A stretch of DNA of 64,000 bases, from NCBI GenBank assembly GCA_016932785.1, contig JAFGCJ010000002.1, positions 273,777 to 337,776 of the forward strand, given 5' to 3'. The translations under genes and the position numbers were made by a program. Shown piece by piece: positions 9,171 to 61,966 of this stretch; within the stretch, counting starts at the first letter, position 1, and each line of letters starts with the position of its first letter. The DNA comes from Candidatus Dojkabacteria bacterium (GTDB lineage: Bacteria > Patescibacteriota > Dojkabacteria > SC72 > JAFGCJ01). The notes beneath the pieces are model-generated. The model was not told where the DNA came from. It did not search any database and saw only the letters and a list, made by a program, of their open reading frames with translations.

Positions 9171-9344
9171 AGCTATATAACAACGTTAATGCCAGATTAT
9201 TTCATAAAGATAAGGAATTGTACACCAAAACAACGTTTTTGACCCCTCTTGCTGCCAAAACGCCAGCCATCCCATAGTGTACACTGAGCCCCAAGAATGC
9301 TATAATAGCAGACCTTTTCAATTATTTCATAGATACAAATCAAA

Positions 9345-10865
9345 GTGGCAGAATATGTAATCGCACAACAGATAGATATTCGACCTGAAGCCCCTGTCTT
9401 TGTTATTGCAACAGAAACTCAACCCCTAGAAAGGCCAACTCTTCAAGAAAATCTCGAACAACTTCCCGAGACAGTACGGATAGAATTTTTCAGACAATTA
9501 AGAGAACTTGAAATTGGTCCTCAATGTCATGGTAATTGTCCATTTTGTTGCTGTGAAGACACCCCATATCCTGCAAGTTCACCCATTGCAGCCGAATATC
9601 TTCGCTTCCATGAAATAGATACAGCAATAAGAGAATTGGCCACTATAGATCATGAAACGGGAATATATCTTCCAAGCTTCTTTCTTGGAAGTGATGTACT
9701 GGAGTGGAAAGACCGCCAGTTAACATATCTCGACATACTAAAACTAATACACGATATATACGGACCTGAAGCACTGGCTTATAAATACATATCGACAAGA
9801 GTCCCCGAAGGAACGGAATATCTTGTGGGAGATATTCTTAGGCTGTGTGACGGTCTTCTTAGTTCTCTACGCAACAAAGGGTATGATTATCCCGCATTTA
9901 AATTTGCTATCTCACTCACAAACCACAATGCTGTAAGAATAGCAGGAATAGTTGATTCCCTGCTTTCTGAAGGCATCATCGGCCGAGATGGAATAACTCC
10001 TTCAGGATCCACAGCATTGATACTGAGAAATAGAAGACTTGCCACAAAATCTGACGATGGACTTTCCTCTGTCGCGCCTGAAATAATCGGTGTTATGGGA
10101 GGCCTGCTTGAACCACTAGACGAGCCTCTGATAGGAGGTTCCACGGAAATTCTTAGATTCCCCAATGCCACATTGAGCCTTGATCAGTTTGATCAAGAAG
10201 GGAGACTGGCAGGTCGAAGAATACGAAAAGTTAAGGACGATCGATTCTTCAAACTTACCGGTATTGCCGGAATAGCTGGATCACCTGTAGTAGGATCTGC
10301 CGTACTTCACGACGCCACAATCTGCAATATTATCGAAATGAGCCCTCTGACAAGACAAAGACGCCACGGAGTAAGAACCTACCCTATAAGATTTACAACA
10401 CCAGACGGAAGTATTTTCTACAGAGTACTGCGACGTAGCTCATTAGGTAACGGCTTAATTCCCCAGGTAACAGTTAGTATCTTCGATGAATCAGGTTCAT
10501 TGATCACTTACGGTCCATCAGGTCCATTTCTAAAGTTTATCCCCGAAGAAAATATACTCATGAAGCTATATCAAATCTATGTGAAATCATTTGCCAAGAA
10601 AACTGATGGAATCAGACACCCATCCCGTCATGAACTCGACTTTATACATAGTGCAATAGCAGAAATCCAGAACCCACACAGACCTATGCTAGCGGACTTT
10701 TACCCTACCCCCAAACGTAAAATGCTAAGACTCATGTCAAGAATTCTAAGTGAGGCGATATATCCCTTAGATCCAGACCATACCTCACCTCCTTTGTTAA
10801 CATCGACAGAACAACGCAACCGTATAGAACTTGAATCCATAGTTACGTCACTTTCAAAGCCCTAG
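9345..10865 (+). CDS. hypothetical protein with CxxxCxxC motif (possible divergent radical-SAM-like), G+C-rich
   Basis: 506-aa ORF with a GTG start. An extended -10 (TGcTATAAT, 9298-9306) lies upstream. GPQCHGNCPFCCCED contains C-x3-C-x2-C with an aromatic residue before the last Cys. Confidence 0.55.
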   Translation: MAEYVIAQQIDIRPEAPVFVIATETQPLERPTLQENLEQLPETVRIEFFRQLRELEIGPQCHGNCPFCCCEDTPYPASSPIAAEYLRFHEIDTAIRELATIDHETGIYLPSFFLGSDVLEWKDRQLTYLDILKLIHDIYGPEALAYKYISTRVPEGTEYLVGDILRLCDGLLSSLRNKGYDYPAFKFAISLTNHNAVRIAGIVDSLLSEGIIGRDGITPSGSTALILRNRRLATKSDDGLSSVAPEIIGVMGGLLEPLDEPLIGGSTEILRFPNATLSLDQFDQEGRLAGRRIRKVKDDRFFKLTGIAGIAGSPVVGSAVLHDATICNIIEMSPLTRQRRHGVRTYPIRFTTPDGSIFYRVLRRSSLGNGLIPQVTVSIFDESGSLITYGPSGPFLKFIPEENILMKLYQIYVKSFAKKTDGIRHPSRHELDFIHSAIAEIQNPHRPMLADFYPTPKRKMLRLMSRILSEAIYPLDPDHTSPPLLTSTEQRNRIELESIVTSLSKP

Positions 10866-10919
10866 TAAAACACCAGATTCATCAACACTATTTTCAACAT
10901 TCACAGAAACAATGCTACA

Positions 10920-11702
10920 ATGATTGTGCCTAATGGCATCAACCTAAAAATGACACACGAAACACGTCCCAGAACAGTTAAGATAAATGGTCGCCGCTAC
11001 ACCTACCTAACCCTTGGGGAGCAACAACCACTCATTTTTATTCCCGGATGGTGCGATCAATCAGACGACTATCTTGGACTGATCAAAGAACTATCCAAGA
11101 ACTTCAAAGTTTATGTCCCTGATCTCCCCAATTTTGGAAAATCCAGAACAAAGGAAAAATTTTGTTTTGATACATATTCGAAATTTCTTACCGGCTTCAT
11201 TGAAACGCTCAAAATCAAAAACCCTACCATTGTAGGTTTTTCATTCGGTGGGATAATCGCTGTTGATCTTGCCTATAAAACAGATCTGAAATCAGTATTC
11301 TTAATAAACTCACTGGGGGCACCTGATATGAAACCGAAGCTATTTCTTTTTATTTCTATTCTAGCAAATACTATCCTTGAAATCGGGTCTTCACCAGTAC
11401 ATATGACAAAGATACTCTACCACTGGTTCAGAAACTTCCTTTCAAACGTATGGAGGAGAGATTTCCGGAGCTTCCAGAATCAAATTCTATACACAGGCCA
11501 TCCATCCATTTCCAAAGTTGATGAGAAGATTACAGTTATCTGGTCTATCAATGATGTAATCTTCAAACCCGAATATCCCTTCATTTTAAAAAATTCATTT
11601 CAAAATGCCAGGCTAATTCGCCTGCCCGGAGGTCACTTTGACTGCACCCTAAATCCCAAAAAATACGCAAAAATAATTACCAAAAACGGGTCTGAAAACT
11701 GA
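10920..11702 (+). CDS. alpha/beta hydrolase fold protein
   Basis: IFIPGWCDQSDDY, VPDLPNFGKS and the nucleophile elbow GFSFGG. The start could instead be Met11 (10950). A TGcTACAAT extended -10 lies at about 10907-10915. Confidence 0.7.
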   Translation: MIVPNGINLKMTHETRPRTVKINGRRYTYLTLGEQQPLIFIPGWCDQSDDYLGLIKELSKNFKVYVPDLPNFGKSRTKEKFCFDTYSKFLTGFIETLKIKNPTIVGFSFGGIIAVDLAYKTDLKSVFLINSLGAPDMKPKLFLFISILANTILEIGSSPVHMTKILYHWFRNFLSNVWRRDFRSFQNQILYTGHPSISKVDEKITVIWSINDVIFKPEYPFILKNSFQNARLIRLPGGHFDCTLNPKKYAKIITKNGSEN

Positions 11703-13330: not shown

Positions 13331-13819
13331 ATGCCTAAATCCAAAAAGAAATCCTCCTCAAAAACAGAAGACAAAATTGAAAAGAAAATTTCAGAGGCAA
13401 TAACCCGGAATGCTCCCAAAATTCTAGACGCGCTAATACCCACGATTCTTTTTCCCATCGTATACCTGCTTTTAAATAAATACTACAGAGACATAAAACT
13501 ATTTAACGAGAACTTCAGAGATATTCTTCCCCTTATTAATTTCTCCTTCCTCGCGGGTTTCGTGTTAAGCTTCACTCGACTATTTTTCTGGAATGATAAG
13601 TACAAAAGGATAACAACTATCGCAAGTAATCTTATTTTCCTTTACGTCAATTATCATGTCTGGAATATTTTTCCCTTTGATACCTCAGTAATAGGCAATC
13701 CCAAAACATGGGACACGGTGTTCAGGGTTTTAATGGTAATTGTTACCGTAGCATCAATTTTCGGTACTTTTGCAGAACTCGTAAGGCTTATGACCCCGAA
13801 GGAAGAAGAAAAGAAATAG
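13331..13819 (+). CDS. hypothetical 4-TM membrane protein
   Basis: 162-aa ORF with a Lys-rich N-terminus and several hydrophobic helices. No motif recognised. Confidence 0.5.
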   Translation: MPKSKKKSSSKTEDKIEKKISEAITRNAPKILDALIPTILFPIVYLLLNKYYRDIKLFNENFRDILPLINFSFLAGFVLSFTRLFFWNDKYKRITTIASNLIFLYVNYHVWNIFPFDTSVIGNPKTWDTVFRVLMVIVTVASIFGTFAELVRLMTPKEEEKK

Positions 13820-14190
13820 AGGAGAATAGTACTTACGCAATTTTTTACTCTCCTTAGCCGACAAGCAAGTATCTACACACAAGTGAAAATAAAGCATTAG
13901 TGACCATTATTAATACTCCAAGGGCCAAGGGTATTTTATAAATATCTCCTTTCATATTTCTGCTGTATAAATTTATCATCGGAATTGAACGATTACTCAT
14001 ATAGATACGTGAACCGACCCCAAAAGCAACCAACTCCTCAGTACATACGCCCTCGAACACACCAAAAGTCACCTACTCGTCAAACTCCTGACATTTACGC
14101 TCAACCATTATTGTGGTAACATGCCCAGGGTCATTTTCGGACAAGAATAATGACTTTACACGAAAAACTTGAATTTTTTACTACACAAAC

Positions 14191-17100
14191 TTGACTCTAG
14201 CATTAATATCGTTCGCAATATTCTTCATAATAAGCGCCATTATTCTTGTGACGGCCTATTTCAGTCCAATTCCAAGAAAAATAGGCTTCAGAAATATTAG
14301 GCGACGTTTCGGTAATACTGTTCTTGTTGTTATTGGCTCACTTGTTGGTGCCGCTCTAATTTCTGGATCACTTGTTCTATCGGACTCTCTAGACAAAACG
14401 TTTGTAGATATTGTTCACAGAATGATCGGAGAACAGGATGCAGAGATTACCCTCAGCGAGAAAGCCTACAGCAACAAACCACTACCCTACTTAGCTGAAG
14501 AAGAGACCGAAGAGATAAAGGATATGCTGGATATCGATGAAGTTGATGGAGTTTTCACTTCGCTTGCTATTAGAACCTCGCCACAGAAAATTAACGACGA
14601 GGGAGAACCAGTTATCAACACCTATCAAATACGTATAGACGGAGTTGACATGGAATCTCTAAAGAAGTTTGGGGAGTCCCCGGTCGAATTAGTCGATATC
14701 AAGGACAATGAAGTTCTTATTTCAAAACCTCTTGCCAAGAAACTTGAGCTTTCTGTCGGAGACACAATCCGTGCACCTTATGGTCCGCTTAGTATCGACT
14801 TCAAAGTAAAGAAAATATATGAAGAAAACGGACTTATTGATGGTTGGAGAATAATAACCACCAACAAATATCTAACCTCTCAGCTTGGAATTCCAAAAGA
14901 CTCCTACAATACAATTGTTATTTCCGCTAAAGGTGGAATCGAACCGGAGAACTACGATGGACCAGAATTTGAAAAAACTTTGGAAAAGGCCCTTGAGGAT
15001 TTCGACTCAGATACCTACGAACTCTCAGTTATGGAGTGGAAAAAAGAAGCCCTTGAAGGCTATGGAATGAAAACCTTCGTAATAATGTTTATTGTGCTTA
15101 GCTTTTTCGGAGTATTTTCCGGTATTTTGCTCATAGTTAATCTTTACTCAATGCTTGCCGAAGAACGTAAACGCGAAATGGGGATCCTGAGAGCCATAGC
15201 CCTCACAAGACTTCAACTGACGAAAACATTTATATATGAAGGGTTTCTCTACACTCTTATTTCGTCCGCAATAGGATCAATCCTCGGAGTTGGAATCGGC
15301 TATATATTGGTACACAGTCTCGACCAGATGTTTGCGAAAATGATGTCATTGACAGGAGGAGAAGACCTCTTCAAACTTTCATTCGGCTTCAAATGGCAAA
15401 GTCTCCTTATCGCTTTCAGCGCGGGCTTTCTCTTTACAATTGTAACTGCCATTCTCTCCAGCTACAAAATAAGCAAATTAAGTATTGTAACTGCAATAAA
15501 AGACATCAAAGAAAAAGCAGATCTTCAAATCGGATGCAAATGGATTGCAAAAACATTCGTTTATGGTCTAGGACTATTTTCAAGTCTGCTTTTTACTCTT
15601 TCCTTCTTTGTTATTAGAACATTTATGGATGAAGGAAGAAATCAGGATGGAAATCCGCTTGCCGAAATGACAACCAGCAACTATAACGATACGGTAGATT
15701 TAATACAGGCCCACGTCCTTTATATAGGTATTCAGTTAACACTTGCACTGGGAGTAATGTTCATTAACAGGATCGCAAAGGCGCTATTAAAAAAGGATAT
15801 TGACAGAGTAACAGTAACAATAGCTTCCCTTTCAAACATAGCAATCACAGCATCTATGATAACCCTAGATTCCTTCAGATCAGCTTTTATGCAGGATGCC
15901 GGAACAGCATTATTTTTCATTCTAAGTGTATCTCTGGTGATATCACTTGCCCTAGCTGTTACGTATAACCTGAATATCATTTCGACAATTCTCGGCTACC
16001 CTCTTCGGAGAATAGGCAGTCTCAGATCGGTTGTGAGAATGGCGTTTCGTTATCCAGCTGAAAATATTAAGAGAACGGGAATTACTTTAGTTATGTTTGC
16101 CCTTATAATTTTCTTAATTGCCTATGTAAGCATGGTAAAGGCAACGGTGGATCAAGAGACAAGAAAAATGCTACTTAACACTCTTGGCGGATACGACCTG
16201 ATAATAATTCCCGGTCCTGACACAACAATGCAACAAACAGACCAGATTATCGAAGATCTAGAAGATTTAAAGGATGTTGACAGAGTATCAAAGATGGGAC
16301 AAACCGTTGTTGTTTTACCTCAGTACAAATATAAGGACTTGGAGGAGGCACAGTATTGGGGAGATCCTTCACAAACACCAAGTCATTCGGAGGAAGATAG
16401 TTTCCGCTCCTACTATAGCAGTCTTCCTGAAGATTTCATTAAGAAAGCAAGAATTTCGTTATCTGAACGGGCAAAAGGATATGAAACCGACGAAGAGGTC
16501 TGGGATAAGGTTATTGAAGACAGCTCTAAGATTGTCCTGGGAGATGCATTTGCGGCAACGCAAGGCTTTGGACAACAGCCGAAAATCTCTGTCGGAGACA
16601 AGGTAATTGTTTCCGATCTTTTCGAGCAAAAAGATATTGAGAAGGAAGTTATTGGAATAGTAAAAGCTCAAGAAGGAGGAAGTCCGTCAGCTAGCTTCTC
16701 ACCTTACATTATAACTACCAACAAGCACGTAGAGGAAGAATTCGATGAGAATTATTTAAATCGATATTCTGCAAAAAGTCTTCTAGCCGCTTTTAATGGA
16801 GATAACACTATCGAGAAGACAAATTCTATAAAAAAAGAGCTAATTAGTTACAATATATCAATGATAATGAATATTGATGATATGACAGAAACAGCTATTT
16901 CTTTTATAAATTCAATGATGATACTTCTCCAGGGATTCCTCGCATTCTGCCTGATAGTAGGAACTTCAGGACTTGCAATAATAATAACCAGAGCAGTACA
17001 CGAAAGACGGCAGCAAATAGGAATGATGCGTAGTCTTGGGTTCCAAAGGTGGATGATACTTGCAAGTTTCTTTATTGAGTCAACCTTCATAACAATGCTA

Positions 17101-33446: not shown

Positions 33447-33726
33447 CCCTACTCTTCTAGTAATAAGAGAAGTAAATGCCCGAATAAAGAAAAACTAACC
33501 CTTGGAAATGGGCAGATCATAGCCAGAATTACTGACTTAACTAACATTCAGGCAGTTTAATTAAACTGAGTTATGAGCCTAATATCAATCTATAGGAATT
33601 TCCATCCAAAGTCAACCCTGCAAAACCCCAGATATGCCTATAACAATGCGAAATATTGCGTAGGAACATAGTTCGAGTAGAAACATCATCAACTTTGAGC
33701 TATAATTACAACAATTTAATAGAAAA

Positions 33727-33938
33727 ATGCTTTGACGGAGAGGAATGGGCTCCTGAGCAGCAAGGCGAAAAGTAAGTAGCCGAGACGTAGTTCCTGCGTA
33801 AAAGGATACCCTGATGTTGATTCCACAAAGTCAGGACAAAGGCAAAATCAGCGATGATTTTGCAAAAAGGGGTGGCACCACGATAAACTCGTCCCCAAAC
33901 AAATGGATCTTTAGGATTCATCTGTTTGGGGATTTTTT
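33727..33938 (+). promoter_or_regulatory. T-box riboswitch leader (Trp specifier) with intrinsic terminator, upstream of trpS
   Basis: UUGACGGAG-AGGAAUGGG-CUCCUGAGC carries UGG at 33746-33748. Stem III is GCAAAATCA/TGATTTTGC. The T-box core AAAAAGGGGUGGCACCACG lies at 33864-33882. The antiterminator is GGGG / bulge UGGCACC / ACGA-UCGU / CCCC. The competing terminator CCCCAAACA..TGTTTGGGG plus U6 lies at 33893-33938. A TATAAT is present at 33701-33706. Confidence 0.85.
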
Positions 33939-33961
33939 GTTAAACTTATTATTAATATATT

Positions 33962-35476
33962 ATGAACAACCACAAAAAAATCAAAAACAAACTAGACAAA
34001 CTTGGATTTAAGTACCAGACTATTGACCTTGCCACAGAGTCTTTGGATCTCGACGAACAGGTCCGCGCAGGGAATCTTAAATACAGCGAATGTGTTGGAA
34101 CACTTCTAATCAAAGACCAACGGGGTAATTACTATGCTTTCCTTAGAAGAGACGACAGAAAAATGGATGCCGAAAAGGTGAAAACGATTATTGGAAGCGA
34201 CTCATTTGATTTCTGTGATGACAAAGACCTTGAAAAAATAGGATTCGAATCAGGACTTCTTTCTCCAGTACTACTAAACGACGGCAAAAAACCAATCAAA
34301 GTATTTGTAGATCAAAATATCAAAAAGATGAAAGTCGTTAACTGTGGACCGGCAATTCCCGGTGCAACCCTCCGTCTCGATAAAGACGATCTCCTCAAGG
34401 CAGTTGGAGAATATGAATTTATAGATTTTACACAGCCTAACCCCCAGAGATCTGATGATCTTTTCTCCTCTGATAAGGTTGTTTACACCGCTGATACCCC
34501 AACAGGTCAGATGCATATCGGACATTACGTTGGAACACTAGAAAATCGGGTTAAGCTCCAAGATAGATTCAACTGTTTTTTCGGACTTGCCAACTATCAC
34601 TCATTTTCATATATGCAAAAAGGTGAGGGCCTCTATAAGAATCCAGATTTTATTCACGAAGTGACTCTACAGGTTGCCATGGATAATCTAGCGGTAGGAA
34701 TAAACCCCGAAAAGTGTACCTACTATATCGAATCAGATGTTCCTGAGACATGTGAACTTGCAATGCTCTTCAGCATGCTGGTATCACACAACCGCGCCCT
34801 AAGAAATCCGACCATTAAGGACGAAATTAAACTAAAAGGCATGGGAAATCAGTTCTCACTTGGATTCATCAACTATCCAATGCTCCAAGCAGCGGATATC
34901 CTTATATTTAAAGCCGAATTAATTCCTGTCGGCAAAGACCAGTTGCCCCATATTGAGCAATCGAGAGAAATAGCCCGAGACTTTAACGAGCTATATGGTG
35001 AGACATTCCCAATTCCAGAGGGTCTTGTAGGAAAGGTCGGAATGCTTCCAGGACTTGATAACAAAAAAATGAGCAAAAGTCTCGGAAATGCTATCGTATT
35101 CACTGATTCCGACGAAGAAATCAAAAAGAAAATAATGAGCATGTACACCGATCCTAACAGGATACATCCGACTGATCCTGGCAAGGTAAAAGACAACCCC
35201 GTATTTATATACCATGAAGCTTTCAATCCAGATAAGGAAGAAATTGAAGATTTGAAGGAACGCTATGAAACCGGAAAAGTCGGCGATGTGGAGGTAAAGG
35301 AGAAACTGGCAAATGCTATGATTAATTTCATCGCTCCAATTCGAGAAAGAAGAAAGAAATACGAGGATAATCCTGACCTTCTAAGAGAAATTCTATCAGA
35401 AGGCGGCAAAAAAGCTAGAAAAGAAGCAAAGAAAACCATGTCCGAAGTCAGAGAAAAGATGAAACTGGACTTCTAG
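33962..35476 (+). CDS. trpS: tryptophan--tRNA ligase with N-terminal YbaK/ProX-like (tRNA_edit-type) domain
   Basis: Residues ~1-165 follow the YbaK pattern (..CVGTLLIKD..YYAFLRRDDRKMD..GFESGLLSPVLL..VNCGPAIPGATLRL). The class Ic core has TPTGQMHIGHYVG (HIGH), PMLQAADIL, GKDQLPHIEQSREIARDFN and KKMSKS. The upstream T-box has a UGG specifier. Confidence 0.85.
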   Translation: MNNHKKIKNKLDKLGFKYQTIDLATESLDLDEQVRAGNLKYSECVGTLLIKDQRGNYYAFLRRDDRKMDAEKVKTIIGSDSFDFCDDKDLEKIGFESGLLSPVLLNDGKKPIKVFVDQNIKKMKVVNCGPAIPGATLRLDKDDLLKAVGEYEFIDFTQPNPQRSDDLFSSDKVVYTADTPTGQMHIGHYVGTLENRVKLQDRFNCFFGLANYHSFSYMQKGEGLYKNPDFIHEVTLQVAMDNLAVGINPEKCTYYIESDVPETCELAMLFSMLVSHNRALRNPTIKDEIKLKGMGNQFSLGFINYPMLQAADILIFKAELIPVGKDQLPHIEQSREIARDFNELYGETFPIPEGLVGKVGMLPGLDNKKMSKSLGNAIVFTDSDEEIKKKIMSMYTDPNRIHPTDPGKVKDNPVFIYHEAFNPDKEEIEDLKERYETGKVGDVEVKEKLANAMINFIAPIRERRKKYEDNPDLLREILSEGGKKARKEAKKTMSEVREKMKLDF

Positions 35477-35949
35477 ATTTTTATTAAAGAATTTTCGTAA
35501 TCCTTAACTCTCTTCGGTTTACCAGTTCGGCTAAGCTCTATCTCGTGGCCCTCTGCTTTTAATTTTGCCACATGAGCCTCAGTTCCTCCCGGATACTTAG
35601 GATTTAATTCTCCACCTGCTTTAAGTGTCCTCCAGTAAGGTGTAATTTCATCAATTTTCTTACCACGCTCTTCCATATCCTCTTCCGCTGCCTTAGCGAC
35701 AAGTCCGACAAAAATACCGGTAACCATGGGACAACAGAAATCGGCTTTATATTTTTTGGAAAAGTAATCACGTATCTCTTCCTGGGTTATAAGCTTCCCT
35801 TTTGGAACTTTCTTCATAAGTTCCTCATACTCCGGGGCTGGAGGAATTACCATCTTTCCATGCATCTTCCAATTTCCACGAGGTTCGACATCTTTAATCA
35901 TTAGCTCTGTCTTGGAATTGAGCATCTCACGAGCTGTTTTTCTTGCCAT
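35473..35949 (-). CDS. MGMT/Atl-like DNA-binding-domain family protein (tentative)
   Basis: 158 aa. VPKGKLITQEEIRDYF .. ITPYWRTLKAGGELNPKYPGG .. KLKAEGHEI resembles the iP.Gkv.ty..ia / vPwhRVv..G.l / L..EG pattern of the methylated-DNA-protein-Cys methyltransferase DNA-binding domain. No PCHR active-site Cys is seen. Confidence 0.4.
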   Translation of the reverse strand: MARKTAREMLNSKTELMIKDVEPRGNWKMHGKMVIPPAPEYEELMKKVPKGKLITQEEIRDYFSKKYKADFCCPMVTGIFVGLVAKAAEEDMEERGKKIDEITPYWRTLKAGGELNPKYPGGTEAHVAKLKAEGHEIELSRTGKPKRVKDYENSLIKI

Positions 35950-35983
35950 AACAAGTAACTTCCAAATTAGATTGACACGATCT

Positions 35984-38173
35984 TTACAGATATTTCAGAA
36001 TTTTAGCCTTGTCCATGTCAACAAACTCAACATTATCCTTATCTCTCTTTTTCATCTCAACCTTATCTTCCTTAAGAGTTTTTTCACTGATAACTATTCT
36101 TAATGGAATACCAATCAAATCAGCATCAGCAAATTTCACTCCTGGTGAAACGTCCGACCTGTCATCCCAAAGAATTTCAACCCCAGATTCTGAAAGATCG
36201 TTATATAGTTTTTCTGATTCTTTTGTGATCTTCTTACCATCGCCAATAGAAACAAGAATCACAGAGAACGGAGCAATGCTCCTGGGCCACACTATTCCGT
36301 TCTCATCGTGATGCATTTCAACAACTGAAGCCATAGCACGTCCAACGCCAATCCCATAGGCTCCCATCCACATAGGTTTTTCCTTCCCATCCTTATCAAC
36401 AAAATAAGCCTTGTGAGGATTAGTGTAATAATGATCATATTTAAAGATATGTCCAACCTCAATTGACTTCTTCTCCTTTAAATAACCGTCCTTACATTTG
36501 GGACACTTCGCACCATCGTATGCCGAGGCAATATCGTCTATCTTTGAAACTTTGAAATCACGACCATAATTAACATTGAATGAATCTGTTGTCTTTTCTT
36601 TAAGTCCTCCAATGAGGTTTTTAGACATTTTTAGTGCAATATCTCCGACATAAATCACATTATCCCTACCCTCATCATGACCCCACGAGTGAACCCACCC
36701 ACTCTTTGTACCAATACTCGTAAGGTCCTCCTCATCAGCATAGTCAAGAACATCAATATCGTCGAACAGATTGGCAATCTTTGTAGCGTTAGCCTCGAGA
36801 TCTCCTCGTACAACGGCAATTATCAATCGCCCCTTTTTGTCTTTGAAAACAACATTCTTAAGAAAATGGGACTTTGGCTTCTTATAATGCTCCACATTTT
36901 CATCCATGGTACATACCCACTCAGGCTGCTCAATAATCTCAAAAGGTTTTTCTTCTTCATCTATGTTTACAGAATCCCTCACAAATTCTGCCTTCTCGAC
37001 GTTTGCTTTATAGCCACACCGGTCACACATGACAATCTTATCTCCTCCTGCACTAAACACCTTGTCCTCTCGAACATCTACGAAGTCTTTTACTTTGAGA
37101 TCCCGTCCAATATTCACATTCTTACGAAAGACTCTCTCCTTATGGGCACCGTCATAATAGTTCTTGTTATATTTAACAGACTCATCGATAATAAGCTCAA
37201 CTTTGCTATCCAGCCCTATCGGAGAAACATAACCAATAAACGATCCCAACTCATCAATCTCAGATTTTGTTGCAGGTCGTATAGTCTTGTACTTAAGCAG
37301 TCTTCGAAGCTTAATGAAGTCAATCCTGTAATCTCCACGTATCGTAATACATATGTACTTTTTCCCATCAACAACATAGACCATGTTCTTCAAAGTTTTT
37401 TCCGGATGTTGTGCATAGAATTTTAGGATCTTCTTATACTCCTTCTGGTTCTTCGACACATCCTCAACTTCCATTCGGAGTTCTTTCTCGTCTTCATCAA
37501 AATATAAATCCAATTCCTGAACTCTTTCAGGGGTAATTACCATAAATTCATGACTATAATCTCCTCCGAGCGCACCATTGTCGGCAATCACAGCCTCTGT
37601 CTTAAGCCCAACACGATTAAAAATCTTCTCGTAGGCCTTCCAGTATGCATCGTAGGTCTTCATAAAAGACTTTTCATCCCTCTCATAATTGTAAGCATCC
37701 TTCATCAAAAACTCTCGAACCCTTATTAGTCCTCCCCGGGGCCTCAACTCATCCCTGAACTTGGGAAGAAACTGATATACATTTATAGGAAGATCTTTAT
37801 AGCTCGGCTTTTCTGACTTTATAACTTCAGTCATAAGCGCTTCAGCTGTAGCACTCATTGCAAAGGTACGGCCAAAATGATCCTTAGCCACAATCATTTG
37901 TTCCCCAAATGCCTCATCACGGTTAGTAATTCTCCAAGGCTCAATAGGCTGCATTATAGGCAGTTCCATTCTCTGAGAACCAATGGCCTCCATCTCCTCA
38001 ACGATTATCTTAATAATCTTATCCTTAACTCGATAACCAAGCGGCATGAATGCATATCTCCCAGTAGCAACCTGCCGAATGAAACCTCCCCTATAAAGGA
38101 GTCTGTGACTTTCAGCCTGTGCATCAGATGGAACGGTCTTAGATGTTTTCAAAAAGTATTCAGTAAATTTCAT
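35984..38173 (-). CDS. proS: proline--tRNA ligase, bacterial type, with duplicated INS (YbaK-like) editing module
   Basis: Class II motifs (FRDELRPRGGLIRVREFLMKDAY; GAYGIGVGRAMASVVE) and a C-terminal anticodon-binding region. At 729 aa it is longer than the usual ~570 aa. It has two INS-like units (LKNMVYV..ITIRGDYRIDFIKL..YVSPIG..NVNIGRDLKV and LKNVVFK..AVVRGDLEANATKI..NVNYGRDFKV). Confidence 0.9.
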   Translation of the reverse strand: MKFTEYFLKTSKTVPSDAQAESHRLLYRGGFIRQVATGRYAFMPLGYRVKDKIIKIIVEEMEAIGSQRMELPIMQPIEPWRITNRDEAFGEQMIVAKDHFGRTFAMSATAEALMTEVIKSEKPSYKDLPINVYQFLPKFRDELRPRGGLIRVREFLMKDAYNYERDEKSFMKTYDAYWKAYEKIFNRVGLKTEAVIADNGALGGDYSHEFMVITPERVQELDLYFDEDEKELRMEVEDVSKNQKEYKKILKFYAQHPEKTLKNMVYVVDGKKYICITIRGDYRIDFIKLRRLLKYKTIRPATKSEIDELGSFIGYVSPIGLDSKVELIIDESVKYNKNYYDGAHKERVFRKNVNIGRDLKVKDFVDVREDKVFSAGGDKIVMCDRCGYKANVEKAEFVRDSVNIDEEEKPFEIIEQPEWVCTMDENVEHYKKPKSHFLKNVVFKDKKGRLIIAVVRGDLEANATKIANLFDDIDVLDYADEEDLTSIGTKSGWVHSWGHDEGRDNVIYVGDIALKMSKNLIGGLKEKTTDSFNVNYGRDFKVSKIDDIASAYDGAKCPKCKDGYLKEKKSIEVGHIFKYDHYYTNPHKAYFVDKDGKEKPMWMGAYGIGVGRAMASVVEMHHDENGIVWPRSIAPFSVILVSIGDGKKITKESEKLYNDLSESGVEILWDDRSDVSPGVKFADADLIGIPLRIVISEKTLKEDKVEMKKRDKDNVEFVDMDKAKILKYL

Positions 38174-38236
38174 TATAAATCTAGTTTAATTTATTTTTAG
38201 GACAGCGTCTACTTTACTTCCAGGGTTTGCTGTACA

Positions 38237-38503
38237 ACAAAAAACTCGCCTATACACACCAGTCTTACTGGTATGCAAAGACGAGCTTTCTCGTGTTACC
38301 ACTTTGCTTTGATTTAACGTTACCGCTAAACCCTCTCTAACTGACTCCATAACTTACGTGAATCAGTGTCCCATTTATTTGCTTCGGTCGGGCTTCCGAA
38401 AAAAGTTGGTGCTGCTATGCAGCTTTTCCTCTTTCACTCCCAGGCGGGTTCGCTCAATCTCTCAACTTCGCTACTATTCCTGTTCACAGTGAGCTATTCA
38501 ATT
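38237..38503 (-). promoter_or_regulatory. T-box riboswitch leader (Pro specifier) with intrinsic terminator, upstream of proS
   Basis: Read on the minus strand: AAUAGUA..GAA-CCC-G specifier region (CCC = 38448-38446). The T-box core is CAAAGCAAAGUGGUAACACGAG (38312-38291). The antiterminator is GCAAAG / bulge UGGUAAC / ACGAG-AAAG-CUCGU / CUUUGC (38307-38275). The terminator is CUCGUCUUUGCAUACC..GGUGUGUAUAGGCGAG plus U6 (38286-38239). Confidence 0.8.
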
Positions 38504-38509
38504 AAGCAA

Positions 38510-38538
38510 ATTATATATTTTGATATCGATACTGTCAA
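38510..38538 (-). promoter_or_regulatory. consensus sigma70-type promoter of the proS leader
   Basis: Minus strand TTGACA (38538-38533), N17, TATAAT (38515-38510). It lies immediately after the stop of the upstream gene. Confidence 0.75.
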
Positions 38539-38544
38539 AAGGTC

Positions 38545-39207
38545 TTATTTGTAAAAAGCCATATTCATAAAGGTCTGCTCTGTCACTACGGCAAAATCAG
38601 GAGCATATTTTGGACGAACATGATCTGAAAATAAAACTTTATTTGGATCCCTGCGCACTACCTGATTCTGACCGGAAAATAGAAAATATTGAGGGCTCCC
38701 TGCAACACAACCAAGATCAGTCCAAATAAATTGAGAAGACGCATGTCCTCTTACTGAATCCCAGCTTTTACGAGAAAAGGTAAAGGCGGCTGAGGCAATT
38801 ACTCTTGAAATCATCCAGAAATTTGACTGGCCCATTTCCATAATCTTAAACTTTGCATTCTGACCAGGCCATCTATTTGACGAGATAATTTTAAATAGAT
38901 CAGGACAACCTGTTATAGCAGTAATTTCATGAACCGAAGCAAAGGCCGCTATTGGAATATTACTATCGGGTTCAGGCATACAAGACAGAAATTGTACATA
39001 CTTAGCATTTTCAAGAACGGGGTCACTTGCAGGACCACCATCCCACGCAACATCAATTCTTTCCCAATCCATTTTGCTGCACCAACTAATTACACCCCCT
39101 AATTCTTCAAAAACCCTTTCAGGATCTTCAAACGGGTTGCTCCAAACAAGACCCAACACAGGATCTTCACCTCTTTCCTGGATTTGATTAAGTTGCTCTG
39201 ACATCAC
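38545..39207 (-). CDS. hypothetical protein
   Basis: 220-aa ORF between tyrS and the proS leader. No family motif recognised. Confidence 0.55.
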   Translation of the reverse strand: MMSEQLNQIQERGEDPVLGLVWSNPFEDPERVFEELGGVISWCSKMDWERIDVAWDGGPASDPVLENAKYVQFLSCMPEPDSNIPIAAFASVHEITAITGCPDLFKIISSNRWPGQNAKFKIMEMGQSNFWMISRVIASAAFTFSRKSWDSVRGHASSQFIWTDLGCVAGSPQYFLFSGQNQVVRRDPNKVLFSDHVRPKYAPDFAVVTEQTFMNMAFYK

Positions 39208-39281
39208 GAATATTAAAACCCTATTAAGTAACTATATGGGATTTTACCACTATAGGCACAGTCAAACAAATGAAAAAACTT

Positions 39282-40907
39282 CTATCTCATTAGGTTCTCC
39301 AGACGTGTAATCAAATCCGCCATACTCTTAGGTTCAAAATGCCTTCTGGCGGGTTCCAAAATCTTTACTACTGCTTCAGATACAGCTGTCTTTAGATCCA
39401 ACGGATGAAGCTTGCCTTCCTCAAACAGATTAAACATTTCCTGCTCAGATTCAAAATTGATATCTCCTCCATGTTTCTTTTCTCTTTTGACCTCTAGCTT
39501 TCCTAAAATAGGAAAAACCAAGTGCTTCGCCCAATCTAAAACGGGATTAAACTCAATCTCCCTTTCAGGACAGAAAGCTCCATTTATCTTCCTTCGTATC
39601 TCATCGACACTGTCATGGATAAACACACACGTATCAGGCTTAGATTTACTCATTTTCATCTCTGACCAAAGTTCTCTAAGCCTTGCCTTATCCTTAATCG
39701 GCCAAACTGGCGGCTTACCAAGACCAAGAATTAGGTGGTGATGAATTGCAACAGGCTTTATCTTATTCTTGCTTTCGTCCAATAATGGAGAGACCTCGAG
39801 TTTTTCAGCAACTTCGCGAGCTATAACATGTGCCTTCCTCTGATCCATACCCCCATGAGCAATATTTACACCAATATTAAAAATATCATTAACCTGCATC
39901 GGCGGATATACAAGCCAGGCAAAGCATTGATTCTCTCCCTCACGCCTACCCATAATCGTGGAACTCTTTACTACACGAGCCAGAGTCAGATTCTTGGAGA
40001 CATCAATAAACGATTGCCAGTACTTATCATTATTGTGATAAAACTCAGATCCAAGGATAAAATTCACTTTCAACGGATCAGCCCCGGCACACTTCAACGA
40101 TGCAATTAATGCTTCCTTAAAATATCCCACTGCAACTTCAGTTATCGTCTCAAGATCTCCATTTAGCTTTCCATTTATCCAGGCATGCCAATCTGCAAGC
40201 AAGATATTGCACTCAACACCGGCCTTGAGTAGATCCTTGATTTTAAGAGCAGTCATAAGTCCGCTCCCAATATGGAGTTTACCGGAAATTTCAAAACCAA
40301 TATAATGGCGAAGCTTAGTTTCTCCAACTATCAGCGATTCCAGATCCTTCTCCGTAAGACACTCTTCAAGATTTCCCGTTATTAAACTTTTCTTCTTTTC
40401 TTGGCTGAGAGAAAGACTCATCTCTATTTTCTCCTTATTACTTAATTTATCGGCCAATTGGGTCACTCTAACATTATGCAATTTACTCAGTGCTTCTTCA
40501 ACACTAAGGTTTATACCCTTAGCCAAATCCCCGGCTCCCATACTCCATCTATCCATATCCGCGGCTTCTTTATCAACCAATATTGGGATGTCAAGCAGGA
40601 AAGGATTTAAACACCCTGGCCGAAACTTAAAATTTTCCGCTAATGCTTGTTCGTCCAGAATATCCCATTTCCCGATGTTTTTCCTCAGAAGCTTCTGATC
40701 AATGCGTTGATCCCCCTTAAGCAGAACAGCAAAAAAGCCCTCAGATGTTTTCACAACTAAAGTCTTTATTGCAATTTGCGGATCATAATTCTTGTCCACT
40801 GAAGAATCGACCTTTCGAGCAGATATGGCCCTATCCGTAAAAGTAATTTCTTCAAAGTTCAGTCCTATTTTCTTCAATTTTCTGGCAACAGAATCAAATG
40901 TATGCAT
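39282..40907 (-). CDS. tyrS: tyrosine--tRNA ligase, archaeal/eukaryotic type, with N-terminal YbaK/ProX-like domain
   Basis: The core closely parallels M. jannaschii TyrRS from memory: HYIGFEISGKLHIGSG, LLADWHAWIN, YPPMQVNDIFNIGVNIAHGGMDQRKAHVIARE, KMSKSKPDTCVFIHDS and HGGDINFESEQEMFNLFEEGKLHPLDLKTAVSEAVVKILEPARR. The N-terminal ~160 aa follow the YbaK pattern (..IAIKTLVVK..FFAVLLKGDQRID..FRPGCLNPFLL..SMGAGDLAKGINLS). Confidence 0.88.
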   Translation of the reverse strand: MHTFDSVARKLKKIGLNFEEITFTDRAISARKVDSSVDKNYDPQIAIKTLVVKTSEGFFAVLLKGDQRIDQKLLRKNIGKWDILDEQALAENFKFRPGCLNPFLLDIPILVDKEAADMDRWSMGAGDLAKGINLSVEEALSKLHNVRVTQLADKLSNKEKIEMSLSLSQEKKKSLITGNLEECLTEKDLESLIVGETKLRHYIGFEISGKLHIGSGLMTALKIKDLLKAGVECNILLADWHAWINGKLNGDLETITEVAVGYFKEALIASLKCAGADPLKVNFILGSEFYHNNDKYWQSFIDVSKNLTLARVVKSSTIMGRREGENQCFAWLVYPPMQVNDIFNIGVNIAHGGMDQRKAHVIAREVAEKLEVSPLLDESKNKIKPVAIHHHLILGLGKPPVWPIKDKARLRELWSEMKMSKSKPDTCVFIHDSVDEIRRKINGAFCPEREIEFNPVLDWAKHLVFPILGKLEVKREKKHGGDINFESEQEMFNLFEEGKLHPLDLKTAVSEAVVKILEPARRHFEPKSMADLITRLENLMR

Positions 40908-40931
40908 GTATATAGAATAACAAAATAAACA

Positions 40932-41014
40932 TCCAGGGGGCAGGATTCGAACCTGCGAAGCCTTTCAGCGTTGGATTTACAGTCCAATGCATTTGACCAC
41001 TCTGCCACCCCTGG
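40932..41014 (-). tRNA. tRNA-Tyr (anticodon GUA), class II with long variable arm, no encoded CCA
   Basis: Minus strand: CCAGGGG-UG-GCA(GAGUGGUCAAA)UGC-A-UUGGA(CUGUAAA)UCCAA-CGCUGAAAGGCUUC-GCAGG(UUCGAAU)CCUGC-CCCCUGG-A. It has a 7-bp acceptor stem, the T-loop consensus and discriminator A. It ends 24 nt upstream of the tyrS ATG. Confidence 0.92.
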
Positions 41015-41018
41015 TATG

Positions 41019-41045
41019 ATGCCTGGCTTCGGCGATGCCTGACAT
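41019..41045. repeat. REP-derived remnant (two direct copies of the REP right arm) abutting the tRNA-Tyr 5' end
   Basis: ATGCCTGgcttcggcgATGCCTGACAT. The second copy matches the right arm of the REP at 46138-46150 except for one base. Confidence 0.55.
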
Positions 41046-41376
41046 ATATAATCGAGACATAGCTCACAACCACTGGCCTTTACTTCATGAAGATGGAGGA
41101 AAAGGGTAAAACCCAAATGGCTGTGAGCTTTTTTATTGGAAGTAGACCTGGATCAAACGAGTGCCAAAGGCTAGCCTCTTTCCAGGTCTTTGGAGATCAC
41201 AATATTTGTTTAGCACAAGAGTGCTAACTAGTTGTAATCACCGCGATACACTACTATCACCTCCTCTATAAAGAACAGCGGTTATTTTAGGCCTTAATTC
41301 CAGATAATACTCCTGGTCGGCCACCGCTCAATAAATCCGTACAAAATTAACTTTTCATTAAGCGAAAGCCCACCGG

Positions 41377-41400
41377 TGCCAGGCATAGCCTATGCCAGCA
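41377..41400. repeat. REP-like palindrome (degenerate copy, opposite orientation)
   Basis: TGCCAGGCATAG-C-CTATGCCAGCA has the same core as the REPs flanking the RAYT gene. It carries one A.A mismatch at the variable arm position. Confidence 0.65.
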
Positions 41401-41475
41401 TATTCAATTCTGCGTCCATTCGGCATAACACAAATCTGCTCTTTAAGTATTTTTTGCTTTTAGCAGCGGTTTTGC

Positions 41476-41838
41476 CAAATAAAAACGCCTTTACACAAAC
41501 CCGATCAGCTCGATCAGATTTATGCAAAGGCGTTCAGTAAACGCGGTACCACTTTGCTTTAGTCTATTGTCTTTTAACAATAAAAAAACACCACGGCGGG
41601 TGTTCGAAGTCAAGACAATAAACTCTTGTCCGGAGTGCTCTGACTTCTTTGCCGACACACTCTTTTCGCTGTCACGGGCGAAACCCGTCAATCTTTTAAC
41701 TGTAATAGTACAGTTTTTTGAGATGAAGCTCAGGAGGGTAATTCTGAAGTTTACTTGCGAAAGCCTTGCTCCAACCGGCTTTTCTCATTTGCCACAGAAA
41801 ACTTCTTACTATTTCTCCGTCAACGCTTTTAAATGAAC
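41476..41838 (-). promoter_or_regulatory. T-box riboswitch leader (Tyr specifier, full-length Stem I) with intrinsic terminator
   Basis: Read on the minus strand: GCGUUGACGGAG-AAAUAGUA-[GAAGUUU..distal..AAACUUC]-AGAAU-UAC-C-CUCCUGAGC (UAC = 41740-41738). The T-box core is AAAGCAAAGUGGUACCGCG (41560-41541). The antiterminator is GCAAAG / bulge UGGUACC / GCGUU-UACUG-AACGC / CUUUGC (41557-41524). The terminator is AACGCCUUUGCA..UGUAAAGGCGUU plus UUUUUAUUU (41534-41476). Confidence 0.85.
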
Positions 41839-41845
41839 TAATTAC

Positions 41846-41874
41846 ATTATATCATAATTTTGTTTTTTTATCAA
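41846..41874 (-). promoter_or_regulatory. near-consensus sigma70-type promoter of the Tyr T-box leader
   Basis: Minus strand TTGATA (41874-41869), N17, TATAAT (41851-41846). Confidence 0.7.
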
Positions 41875-42007
41875 GGTTTTTATGCATTAAAACCCCATAA
41901 ACAAAGACAAATACTTAAAATTGACCCCAATCGAAAACACAAATATAATCGAAACATGGACTCAGTCTTTTTCAGATTTCACTACCTAATTTCATCTCTC
42001 CTCATAT

Positions 42008-46123: not shown

Positions 46124-46150
46124 TGTCAGGCATAGGCTATGCCTGACATA
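46124..46150. repeat. REP palindrome flanking the RAYT gene (3' side)
   Basis: ATGTCAGGCATAG-G-CTATGCCTGACAT has 13-nt perfect arms around a single central nt. It overlaps the last codons and stop of the RAYT ORF. Confidence 0.8.
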
Positions 46151-46607
46151 GAGTCTTTGTAAAATGAATGTATCGTGGATTAATGTATAACCACTTGTAA
46201 AAGGAAGGGTCGTATACATACCCTTCCTTGACCGGATTTCTCTCGATATACCTGATCAGCCTACGTAAACTGCTCTTTGTGAAAACAGATTTTGCTTGAT
46301 AACGCCCCTGAAAAGTATGCCCCACAAGCCTATATTTCAAATTGAAATATTTCGAATATGATGTTAAAAGTCTCTGCATAAGAATTGATATCTCATCGCC
46401 AAAACCCTGCCTAACAACCAAATGAAAATGATTATCCATAAGACAATATCCTATTAGCTCTATACCACAATCAAAGACAGTCCTCTTCAATTTACTAATA
46501 AAGAATAACCGGTCTATTCTCGACCGAAAAATCCTTTTTTTTCTATTACCACGATTGTATACATGATATATAACACCAGATTTATAGTCCCTCTTAACTC
46601 TATTCAT
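46137..46607 (-). mobile_element. REP-associated tyrosine transposase (RAYT; IS200/IS605 Y1 transposase-like)
   Basis: 156 aa. VIYHVYNRGN, the HUH motif LMDNHFHLVV, GHTFQGRYQAK and the catalytic-Tyr region LIRYIERNPVKEG. It is flanked on both sides by cognate palindromes. Confidence 0.85.
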
Positions 46608-61213: not shown

Positions 61214-61966
61214 ATGAAGAAGCTCCGGACCTATAACCTAATAATGGGCTTTTTTCATCTAATTCAGGCTGGTCTGATGATTGCCCTCAGTAACGATTTC
61301 GCTCTTCCAGTGACAACACGTTATCTTAGATTTAATATACAAACTCAATCATTGCAACCCAAGTCTGAAGAGATAGCTACTCTCAAAATAGGCCCTCTGG
61401 TAGCACTTTTCTTACTTATGTCCGCGATGGCCCACTTTCTATTAACAATTCCGAGAATTTACAACTGGTACACCAAGAATCTAAAAAAGGGGATAAACTA
61501 CGCCAGATGGTACGAGTATTCCCTCAGTTCCTCGGTAATGATTGTTGTAATAGCAATGCTTACTGGAGTTTATGACTTGAGTAGTCTCATTCTAATGTTT
61601 TCAATAAATGCGATGATGATATTCTGCGGACTAATGATGGAAAGGCACAATCAAAACACCAAGAAAACGGACTGGGTGCCGTATGTGTTCGGTTGCTTCG
61701 CAGGAGCTGTACCTTGGGTTGTTATTGCCCTTTATCTATTCGGTTCAGCCGACGGAGAGAATCGAGCACCAGATTTCGTTTACTATATATTCTTCTCGAT
61801 TTTCCTGTTCTTCAACTCTTTTGCTGTAAATATGTTTTTGCAGTACAAGAAGGTTGGAAAATGGAAGGACTACTTATTCGGAGAAAAGGTATACATTTTG
61901 CTCAGTCTGCTTGCCAAATCACTACTAGCCTGGCAGGTATTCGGAGGAACTTTGAGACCGGAATAA
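61214..61966 (+). CDS. heliorhodopsin
   Basis: 250 aa with 7 TM. There are long collinear matches to heliorhodopsin 48C12 as I recall it: FHLIQ..LSNDFALP, RWYEYSLSSSVMIV (Glu101 is the counterion position), FGCFAGAVPW, FLFFNSFA, and LQYKKVGKWKDYLFGEKVYILLSLLAKSLLAWQVFGGTL. Lys235, codon 61916-61918, is at the Schiff-base position. Confidence 0.88.
   Translation: MKKLRTYNLIMGFFHLIQAGLMIALSNDFALPVTTRYLRFNIQTQSLQPKSEEIATLKIGPLVALFLLMSAMAHFLLTIPRIYNWYTKNLKKGINYARWYEYSLSSSVMIVVIAMLTGVYDLSSLILMFSINAMMIFCGLMMERHNQNTKKTDWVPYVFGCFAGAVPWVVIALYLFGSADGENRAPDFVYYIFFSIFLFFNSFAVNMFLQYKKVGKWKDYLFGEKVYILLSLLAKSLLAWQVFGGTLRPE

Follow-up and report, generated by a model that had tools for sequence, protein, structure and literature searches.

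The window analysed here is a 64-kb stretch of a 598,548-bp contig from Candidatus Dojkabacteria (WS6; candidate phyla radiation (CPR)/Patescibacteria). Within 8 kb it encodes tryptophanyl-, prolyl- and tyrosyl-tRNA synthetases (TrpRS, ProRS and TyrRS), all found where the original prediction, made from the sequence alone, had placed them, and together they carry four modules of the INS/YbaK superfamily. We consider it probable, on balance, that these are separately transcribed, T-box-controlled genes, each with an acquired accessory INS/YbaK-fold domain that edits its own tRNA in cis. Under this model, uncharged cognate tRNA would switch each gene on through a terminator-type T-box, and the accessory domain would edit in cis, working at the 3' end of the tRNA served by its own synthetase and hydrolyzing it when misacylated (post-transfer editing). 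Judged by active-site residues, the best-fitting account is of canonical modules on TyrRS and ProRS and a remodelled one on TrpRS. Architecture, fold, conservation, purifying selection, T-box anatomy and gene associations were observed directly; hydrolysis, cis action and substrates are inferred. To our knowledge, TyrRS and TrpRS are textbook synthetases without editing domains; a conserved and selected YbaK-fold family on both would add a new class of cis-editing enzymes.

All four predicted modules were recovered with PF04073 at 48-71 bits, above the gathering cut-off of 25.5 bits. TrpRS (504 aa; 33962-35476, + strand) matched PF04073 at aa 33-146 (E 9e-20). Its module (aa 1-165; 33962-34456) precedes a bacterial-type core with HIGH and KMSKS (34469-35476; PF00579), which scored as an equivalog of TIGR00233 (276 bits, cut-off 176.75). 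TyrRS (541 aa; 39282-40907, - strand) likewise begins with a module (aa 1-155; 40443-40907; PF04073 at aa 40-138, E 2e-17), followed by a core (aa 176-541; 39282-40382) that is archaeal-type, as predicted, and an equivalog of NF006330 (404 bits, cut-off 220). ProRS (729 aa; 35984-38173, - strand) is a bacterial-type equivalog of NF006625 (636 bits, cut-off 558) and contains module A (aa 215-373; 37055-37531; E 2e-18) and module B (aa ~396-560; 36494-36988; E 2e-12).

The YbaK fold predicted for the two N-terminal modules was borne out by structural models. AlphaFold2 (AF2) returned predicted local distance difference test (pLDDT) values of 94.7 for the TrpRS module and 86.3 for the TyrRS module. 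Foldseek matched both to YbaK, APE2540, ProX and INS with probability 1.0 and template modelling (TM) scores of 0.7-0.8. The best solved relative of each was APE2540 (1wdv), with YbaK (1dbu, 2dxa), ProX (2cx5) and INS as further relatives; all five PDB references (5/5) contain the catalytic Lys. The 37 top significant Foldseek PDB matches were all YbaK/ProX/INS-type or related. None was a D-aminoacyl-tRNA deacylase (DTD), and the modules belong to the YbaK fold instead of the DTD fold or family. The ProRS modules were assigned to the YbaK fold by sequence alone.

Profile-profile comparison indicates that the four modules have two origins. ProRS module A lay nearest INS (hhalign score 148, E 9e-25), while the TrpRS and TyrRS modules each lay nearest free-standing proteins of ~150 aa (238 for both). 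These two modules scored 163 against each other, and 97 (TrpRS) and 33 (TyrRS) against INS. ProRS would thus have duplicated its own INS domain, and the N-terminal modules of TrpRS and TyrRS would each go back to the capture of a free-standing YbaK-family protein resembling APE2540. A common derivation of all four from the ProRS INS domain was rejected on the same scores. The domain family was also seen fused to GatB, GatB/YqeY domains and a dual-specificity phosphatase domain (P0444, P0467, P0450, P0472), which suggests frequent shuffling among proteins, many of them translation-related.

The fusions are real. Among the best 120 TrpRS matches, 49 (44-77% identity) carry the module, three of them with two in tandem; the corresponding number for TyrRS is 8 of the best 120. 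Module and TrpRS core formed one continuous open reading frame (ORF) in 12/12 independently fetched genome or metagenome loci (retrieved with flanks of 10 kb or less), and the fusion architecture recurred in dozens of independent assemblies from NCBI, JGI, ENA and Logan. In the window, the TrpRS ORF is continuous and starts 24 nt past the T-box terminator. Synonymous sites were saturated relative to homologues (pS 0.79-0.93). Nonsynonymous divergence (pN) was 0.21-0.28 in the TrpRS module (0.13 in the TrpRS core) and 0.16 in ProRS module A (0.09 in the N-terminal core of ProRS); purifying selection acts on the modules. That assembly errors, frameshifts or over-extended gene calls have joined separate genes is hardly credible given the recurrence of these single ORFs across Dojkabacteria assemblies; in addition, the Trp module is as Trp-free as the TrpRS core. 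Two database records lean the other way: the NCBI call of the window TrpRS starts internally, and the tyrS call of one relative extends into the tRNA that lies ahead of it. Two tandem YbaK-type modules on TrpRS were found in P0033, P0034, P0039 and P0420.

The TyrRS module has a canonical active site. With columns anchored on the 'FKTL' and 'GGISP' motifs of H. influenzae YbaK (YbaK K46), both Lys48 and the G98xxxP102 loop are intact, within the signature 'FTDxAISAR..D.S.D.NYDP..AIKTL'. Across TyrRS modules, Lys was present in 9/9 and the Gly and Pro of GXXXP in 9/9. A profile search of 1.8 billion representatives returned mostly free-standing proteins, and at least 12 of these among the matches listed contain '[IV]S[AT]R' (as in 'FTDxAISAR..DTS..NYDP..IKTL').

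Gene associations tie this subfamily to TyrRS and tRNA-Tyr. In a WWE3 locus (L004), the gene order is tRNA-Tyr (C1:G72), a hisC-like aminotransferase, a free-standing module and an archaeal-type tyrS; the first 4 nt of tyrS lie within the module gene. An 825-aa protein seen on two contigs (P0361; L013 4001-6478) joins a YbaK module, 46% identical to the window TyrRS module, to PheRS-beta-type B3/B4 and an unrelated, bacterial-type TyrRS with an S4 domain. P0361 is thereby a tyrosine enzyme with two different editing-type domains. A further module, in P0364, precedes a fragment that resembles bacterial-type TyrRS by motif only. That two unrelated types of TyrRS are fused to one and the same subfamily is, in our view, what most strongly argues for a function specific to tRNA-Tyr.

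The tRNA itself may help to explain this pairing. The tRNA-Tyr predicted for the island was identified by ARAGORN and Rfam as tRNA-Tyr(GUA) at 40932-41014 (- strand), with C1:G72, A73 and a long variable arm. The tRNA-Tyr genes of locus L003 and WWE3 share C1:G72 and A73, as does tRNA-Pro of L003. The natural ligand of the INS/YbaK superfamily is tRNA-Pro, and the acceptor end of bacterial tRNA-Pro resembles that of this tRNA-Tyr. As C1:G72 is common to both tRNAs and is recognized by ProXp-ala and bacterial ProRS (PMC10164551), an INS-type domain would have been pre-adapted to this tRNA-Tyr acceptor end.

The fusions point to a putative quality-control step, for which D-tyrosine is one concrete candidate for removal. 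A narrower version of the editing model is chiral proofreading, in which the Tyr module, and perhaps the Trp module, would be the YbaK-fold counterpart of DTD and free tRNA of D-Tyr or D-Trp. We regard this version as doubtful. In its favour, the gene of P0363, a free-standing protein of the TyrRS-module subfamily, shares 4 nt with the end of an amino-acid racemase gene (TIGR00035, 161 bits, cut-off 93). The pair occurred in two samples (L005 4315-5468; L006 4315-5468), with a second racemase in L005. It is established that TyrRS and TrpRS charge D-Tyr and D-Trp and that DTD clears these (Calendar & Berg 1967; Soutourina 2000; both cited in PMC11295145). Furthermore, no Pfam deacylase family, DTD families included, was matched by the scanned ORFs of the window (nearly all those of at least 150 aa). 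However, the racemase association is a single one and lies on what looks like a conjugative element (T4SS pilin, TraG/TrwB-like ATPase, relaxase and, in L005 alone, a resolvase). Neighbours of further free-standing modules were uninformative in the loci checked, and a 432-aa neighbour of the free module in L024 had no family or PDB relative. D-aminoacyl activity by a YbaK fold would be convergent, and we know of no INS-superfamily member that is enantioselective for D-amino acids. The racemase link therefore motivates the D-tyrosine hypothesis and does not establish it.

The TrpRS module departs from the canonical site. In the window protein, Gly46 replaces the catalytic Lys, and Arg62 sits in an 'LRRDD' motif. 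The Lys is missing in 51/53 TrpRS modules, where the position is occupied by Ser (24), Pro (12), Gly (7), Ala (7) or Thr (1). Position 62 is Arg (40) or Lys (11) in all 51 of these. In more than 300 other modules from all remaining groups, the two Lys-containing TrpRS modules among them, position 62 is mainly Leu, Ile or Val and never Arg or Lys. Strands 44-52 and 57-63 pair as a hairpin in the model, placing positions 46 and 62 close in space. As loss of Lys and gain of Arg/Lys62 are coupled in 51/51 sequences, the site looks rebuilt, not decayed. Replacement of Lys by a small residue together with a new Arg/Lys62 means that the chemistry or substrate probably differs from the standard one. 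Lys51, 5 residues downstream of position 46, was considered as a substitute and rejected, as Lys/Arg is frequent there in Lys-containing families too. The loop of the window module reads GLLSP, and the Pro of GXXXP varies across the TrpRS-module family.

The two class I enzymes are also poor in their own amino acids. TrpRS contains no Trp in 504 residues, module included (~1e-3 expected from window composition), and 117/120 homologues likewise lack it. Mukai et al. 2017 (PMC5370408) had already remarked that bacterial-type TrpRS in these CPR bacteria contain no Trp. TyrRS contains six Tyr (1.1%), compared with 4.1% Tyr in window proteins.

The Lys-less TrpRS site raises the alternative that the modules are non-catalytic appendages, additional domains for binding the acceptor end which improve tRNA capture or retention. 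Such a role might suit an archaeal-type TyrRS without an S4-like domain acting on a tRNA-Tyr with a long variable arm. Indeed, the TyrRS here has no C-terminal tRNA-binding domain, the RNA-binding PheRS B2 domain is fused to TyrRS in WS6 (PMC5370408), and a Lys-less YbaK-like protein of Leishmania was judged probably inactive (PMC3532385). Nonetheless, Lys48 and GXXXP are invariant in TyrRS modules, the same subfamily occurs on a bacterial-type TyrRS that retains S4, and close relatives have archaeal-type TyrRS with no module at all. The coupled change at positions 46 and 62 also speaks for rebuilding over decay. Taken together, we find purely tRNA-handling modules unlikely and retain editing in cis as the preferred explanation.

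For ProRS, the prediction of two tandem modules was right in number; in position they are not strictly tandem, as a Zn-hairpin segment separates A from B. ProRS aa 1-214 and 374-721 are colinear with S. aureus ProRS 1-214 and 215-553, which identifies module B as the canonical INS domain in its CPR form and module A as an extra INS-like insertion (~215-373) immediately before the 'GGDKIVMCDRCGYKANVEKAE' segment. Module A keeps Lys, RGD and GYVSP; Lys is present in 32/32 ProRS-A modules, and the Pro of GXXXP varies across that family. Module A was found in 31 long ProRS relatives and was absent from the aligned single-INS CPR ProRS. Module B contains a GWVHSWGH motif common to single-INS CPR ProRS. 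In this CPR form the INS loop is G..S/C (GWVHS), and Lys is present in 117/117 INS domains. A degenerate module B, suggested by GWVHS in place of GXXXP, was rejected since single-INS CPR ProRS have the same motif. Separately, a set of distant double-INS ProRS-like proteins (P0259-P0279) has the 'DYSHEF' beside the insertion replaced (e.g. 'ASGLRF', 'NPVLRY'), and several have no precomputed PF00587 match. Such proteins are possibly paralogues of ProRS that have lost aminoacylation.

T-boxes are ordinary regulators of synthetase genes, and one was identified for each of the three genes here. The tRNA-Trp leader (33723-33941, + strand; RF00230, 59.3 bits, E 3e-11) follows a promoter-like TAGAAA-17-TATAAT (33678-33706; 10/12 in a consensus scan, by position only). 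It has an ultrashort Stem I (GGAG-A-GGAA-UGG-G-CUCC) with the specifier in the terminal loop, a UGGC bulge, and a terminator hairpin (33891-33933; -29.3 kcal/mol, z -4.1) followed by a U-run. The tRNA-Pro leader (38239-38496, - strand; 55.9 bits, E 2e-10) lies behind a perfect TTGACA-17-TATAAT (38538-38510; 12/12 consensus matches; whole unit 38239-38538). It combines a shortened, intermediate Stem I (GAA-CCC-G-CCUG) with a UGGU bulge and a terminator with U-run (-36.4 kcal/mol, z -7.5). The tRNA-Tyr leader (88.9 bits, E 8e-19; 41486-41874 with its promoter-like site, - strand) is preceded by TTGATA-17-TATAAT (41874-41846) with TG ahead of the -10 hexamer. It has a full Stem I (GAAU-UAC-C-CUCC), a UGGU bulge and a terminator at 41532-41486 (-37.2 kcal/mol, z -6.6). 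All three terminators are followed by a U-run and overlap the 3' half of the T-box helix, so that terminator and antiterminator are mutually exclusive. The promoter-like sites ahead of the leaders are all good sigma-70-like sequences.

The specifiers (UGG, CCC and UAC) and bulge bases could be read directly as originally predicted. Relatives conserve them, with specifiers UAC, UGG and CCU in L003 and CCC in L001. The L003 Trp leader has the same ultrashort Stem I, and the anticodon GUA and A73 of tRNA-Tyr fit the UAC/UGGU of the Tyr leader. Description of the leaders as canonical did not hold in the strict sense, since all three scored below the RF00230 gathering score of 93 bits. They were found by E-value search (E-values computed over 8.8 kb), and only the tRNA was detected at gathering score. 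The AG bulge and distal loop align in the Tyr leader, and the distal platform is absent from the truncated Stem I of the Trp and Pro leaders. Short Stem I is typical of translational actinobacterial ileS T-boxes, and T-boxes that act on transcription are considered to require the distal platform (PMC7583486). Like the ileS T-boxes, the Trp and Pro leaders have no such platform, yet those act on translation whereas these end in a strong terminator and U-run.

Placement of the T-box ahead of each gene also needed one amendment, as the Tyr leader is set apart from tRNA-Tyr and tyrS by a 471-nt structured spacer (41015-41485, - strand; minimum free energy -166 kcal/mol, z -6.9 vs shuffled sequence). 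No Rfam family matched the spacer, and none of its ORFs was convincing. L003 has a comparably long, patchily conserved spacer at the same place (9494-9978). The element could be a structured RNA not described so far, or a leader that is processed. The order T-box, tRNA, cognate synthetase was seen for tRNA-Tyr-tyrS (window 40932-41874; L003) and for tRNA-Pro(UGG)-proS (L003), the L003 units spanning 9167-11680 and 13340-16034. If tRNA and synthetase are co-transcribed, the T-box would control the gene of its own ligand; we know of no description of such an arrangement.

The original prediction had gone further and read the three genes as a coordinated quality-control island replacing stand-alone deacylases lost from a reduced genome. 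Three module-bearing synthetases do lie within 8 kb (~11 kb in L003), CPR genomes are small, and hidden Markov models built locally from the modules detected no further YbaK-like ORF in the 64-kb window. However, the genes lie on both strands as separate transcription units, a promoter-like site, a T-box and a terminator belonging to every one, and would answer three different tRNAs. Clustering is only loosely conserved: other genes are interspersed in L003, L001 is arranged differently, and WWE3 L004 has the TyrRS part only. Modules come and go independently among close relatives, and free-standing relatives of the module exist in CPR genomes. Coordination was thus not supported, and we consider such an island quite improbable; the favoured reading is of individually controlled genes with individually acquired domains.

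Several points weigh against editing in cis by all of these modules. Relatives with 68-79% identical cores do not have the Trp or Tyr module; among them, TrpRS proteins 71-79% identical over the core have no module. In L001, a short trpS lies 58 nt after proS, and no PF04073-only gene was called in the 17-kb locus; likewise, no YbaK-like gene was found beside the closest module-less TyrRS. As close relatives do without them, the Trp and Tyr modules appear to be accessory, dispensable domains. The specificity of TyrRS and TrpRS is normally high enough that L-amino acids require no editing. Deacylase activity is a prediction for every module, and cis action a presumption drawn from the fusion. 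The TrpRS module need not be a standard deacylase, given its missing catalytic lysine, a residue which mutagenesis of YbaK identified as critical (PMC3532385). Finally, by the predicted hairpin register, Arg62 may face the opposite side of the sheet.

Comparison with known systems places these proteins within the INS/YbaK superfamily, with which they share PF04073, the fold and, in the Tyr and ProRS modules, the catalytic Lys. They differ in the fusion to class Ic enzymes, the Lys-less TrpRS clade with Arg/Lys62 and the second INS domain in ProRS. Descriptions of the superfamily know it as the ProRS insertion or as single-domain proteins that act in trans. According to a 2024 review, superfamily members other than INS are single-domain proteins, and no TrpRS or TyrRS partner is listed (PMC11295145). 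The same review describes the DTD-like N-terminal editing domain of archaeal ThrRS, which acts on Ser-tRNA-Thr. There, too, a free-standing deacylase fold was recruited to the N-terminus of a synthetase, but the fold is another one, the enzyme is class II and the substrate is known. Cytosolic TrpRS of Plasmodium falciparum bears an appended editing-type domain (PMC3240968), though this is eukaryotic and an AlaX homologue, not YbaK-type. Apicomplexan and trypanosomatid ProRS bear N-terminal YbaK/ProXp-ala domains (PMC3240968, PMC3532385), as here, but on the usual partner of the family and not on a class I enzyme.

A further precedent is the system of Mukai, Reynolds, Crnkovic & Soll 2017 (PMC5370408), who had already described the transferred archaeal-type TyrRS of WS6 and WWE3 and, in the same lineages, tRNA-Tyr that combines C1:G72 with a variable arm. 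Our lineages (Dojkabacteria/WS6 and WWE3), DPANN-derived TyrRS and hybrid tRNA-Tyr are the same; the TyrRS core of the window is ~60% identical to DPANN archaeal TyrRS (Pacearchaeota, Nanoarchaeota). N-terminal domain fusion to TyrRS was noted there as a CPR theme. In that work, however, the fused domain in WS6 was PheRS-beta B2 (OB-fold), where here it is YbaK-fold; YbaK was never mentioned, and termini were trimmed for phylogeny. We found no description of YbaK-TrpRS/TyrRS fusions, duplicated INS or T-boxes in CPR in full-text searches, and searches for CPR editing domains and for DTD in Patescibacteria returned nothing on these features. As far as we found, YbaK-type domains on TrpRS and TyrRS have not been described before. 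Such sequences have been public for some time; a protein of WS6 GW2011_GWF2_39_15 (P0024) is already in UniRef.

A bolder proposal is that these modules represent two undescribed CPR clades of INS domains for class Ic synthetases, which we put forward as a possibility short of being likely. One would be a tRNA-Tyr deacylase clade that removes D-Tyr or another tyrosine look-alike as a DTD analogue; its members would be found on their own, in translational coupling with tyrS, or as fusions to one or the other type of TyrRS. The other would be a TrpRS-only clade with a moved catalytic base (Lys46 lost, Arg/Lys62 gained), which would mean new chemistry or a new substrate and provide a natural experiment in relocating a catalytic residue. 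If this proposal is true, then together with the duplicated ProRS INS, TyrRS and TrpRS would have natural cis-editing forms.

Public annotation mishandles module-bearing synthetase genes. The NCBI call of the window TrpRS (P0002) has 382 aa and an internal start, which cuts off the YbaK module. For the 729-aa ProRS the record reads 'hypothetical protein JW710_02235', and relatives are labelled 'YbaK/EbsC family protein' or 'aminoacyl-tRNA ligase-related protein'. NCBI records identical to the window TyrRS (P0121) and ProRS (P0241, locus tag JW710_02235) exist. With automatic calls that truncate TrpRS and leave ProRS 'hypothetical', CPR synthetase inventories may mislead.

Of two uncharacterized genes predicted in the island, one was upheld. 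The 158-aa ORF directly downstream of proS (35473-35949, - strand) is 81% identical to the ORF at the same position in L003 (16053-16532). It gave no significant Pfam or NCBIfam match, only a sub-threshold one to PF01035 (MGMT DNA-binding domain). The 220-aa ORF at 38545-39207 (- strand) had no recognizable Pfam or NCBIfam family and no homologue in any fetched locus, and is possibly not a real gene. Neighbours elsewhere in the window included surface proteins, TruB, ABC/MacB-type transporters and glycosyltransferases, and an IS200-like transposase gene lies at 46137-46607 (- strand). A heliorhodopsin gene was found at 61214-61966 (+ strand; PF18761, E 1e-105), with another in relative L003.

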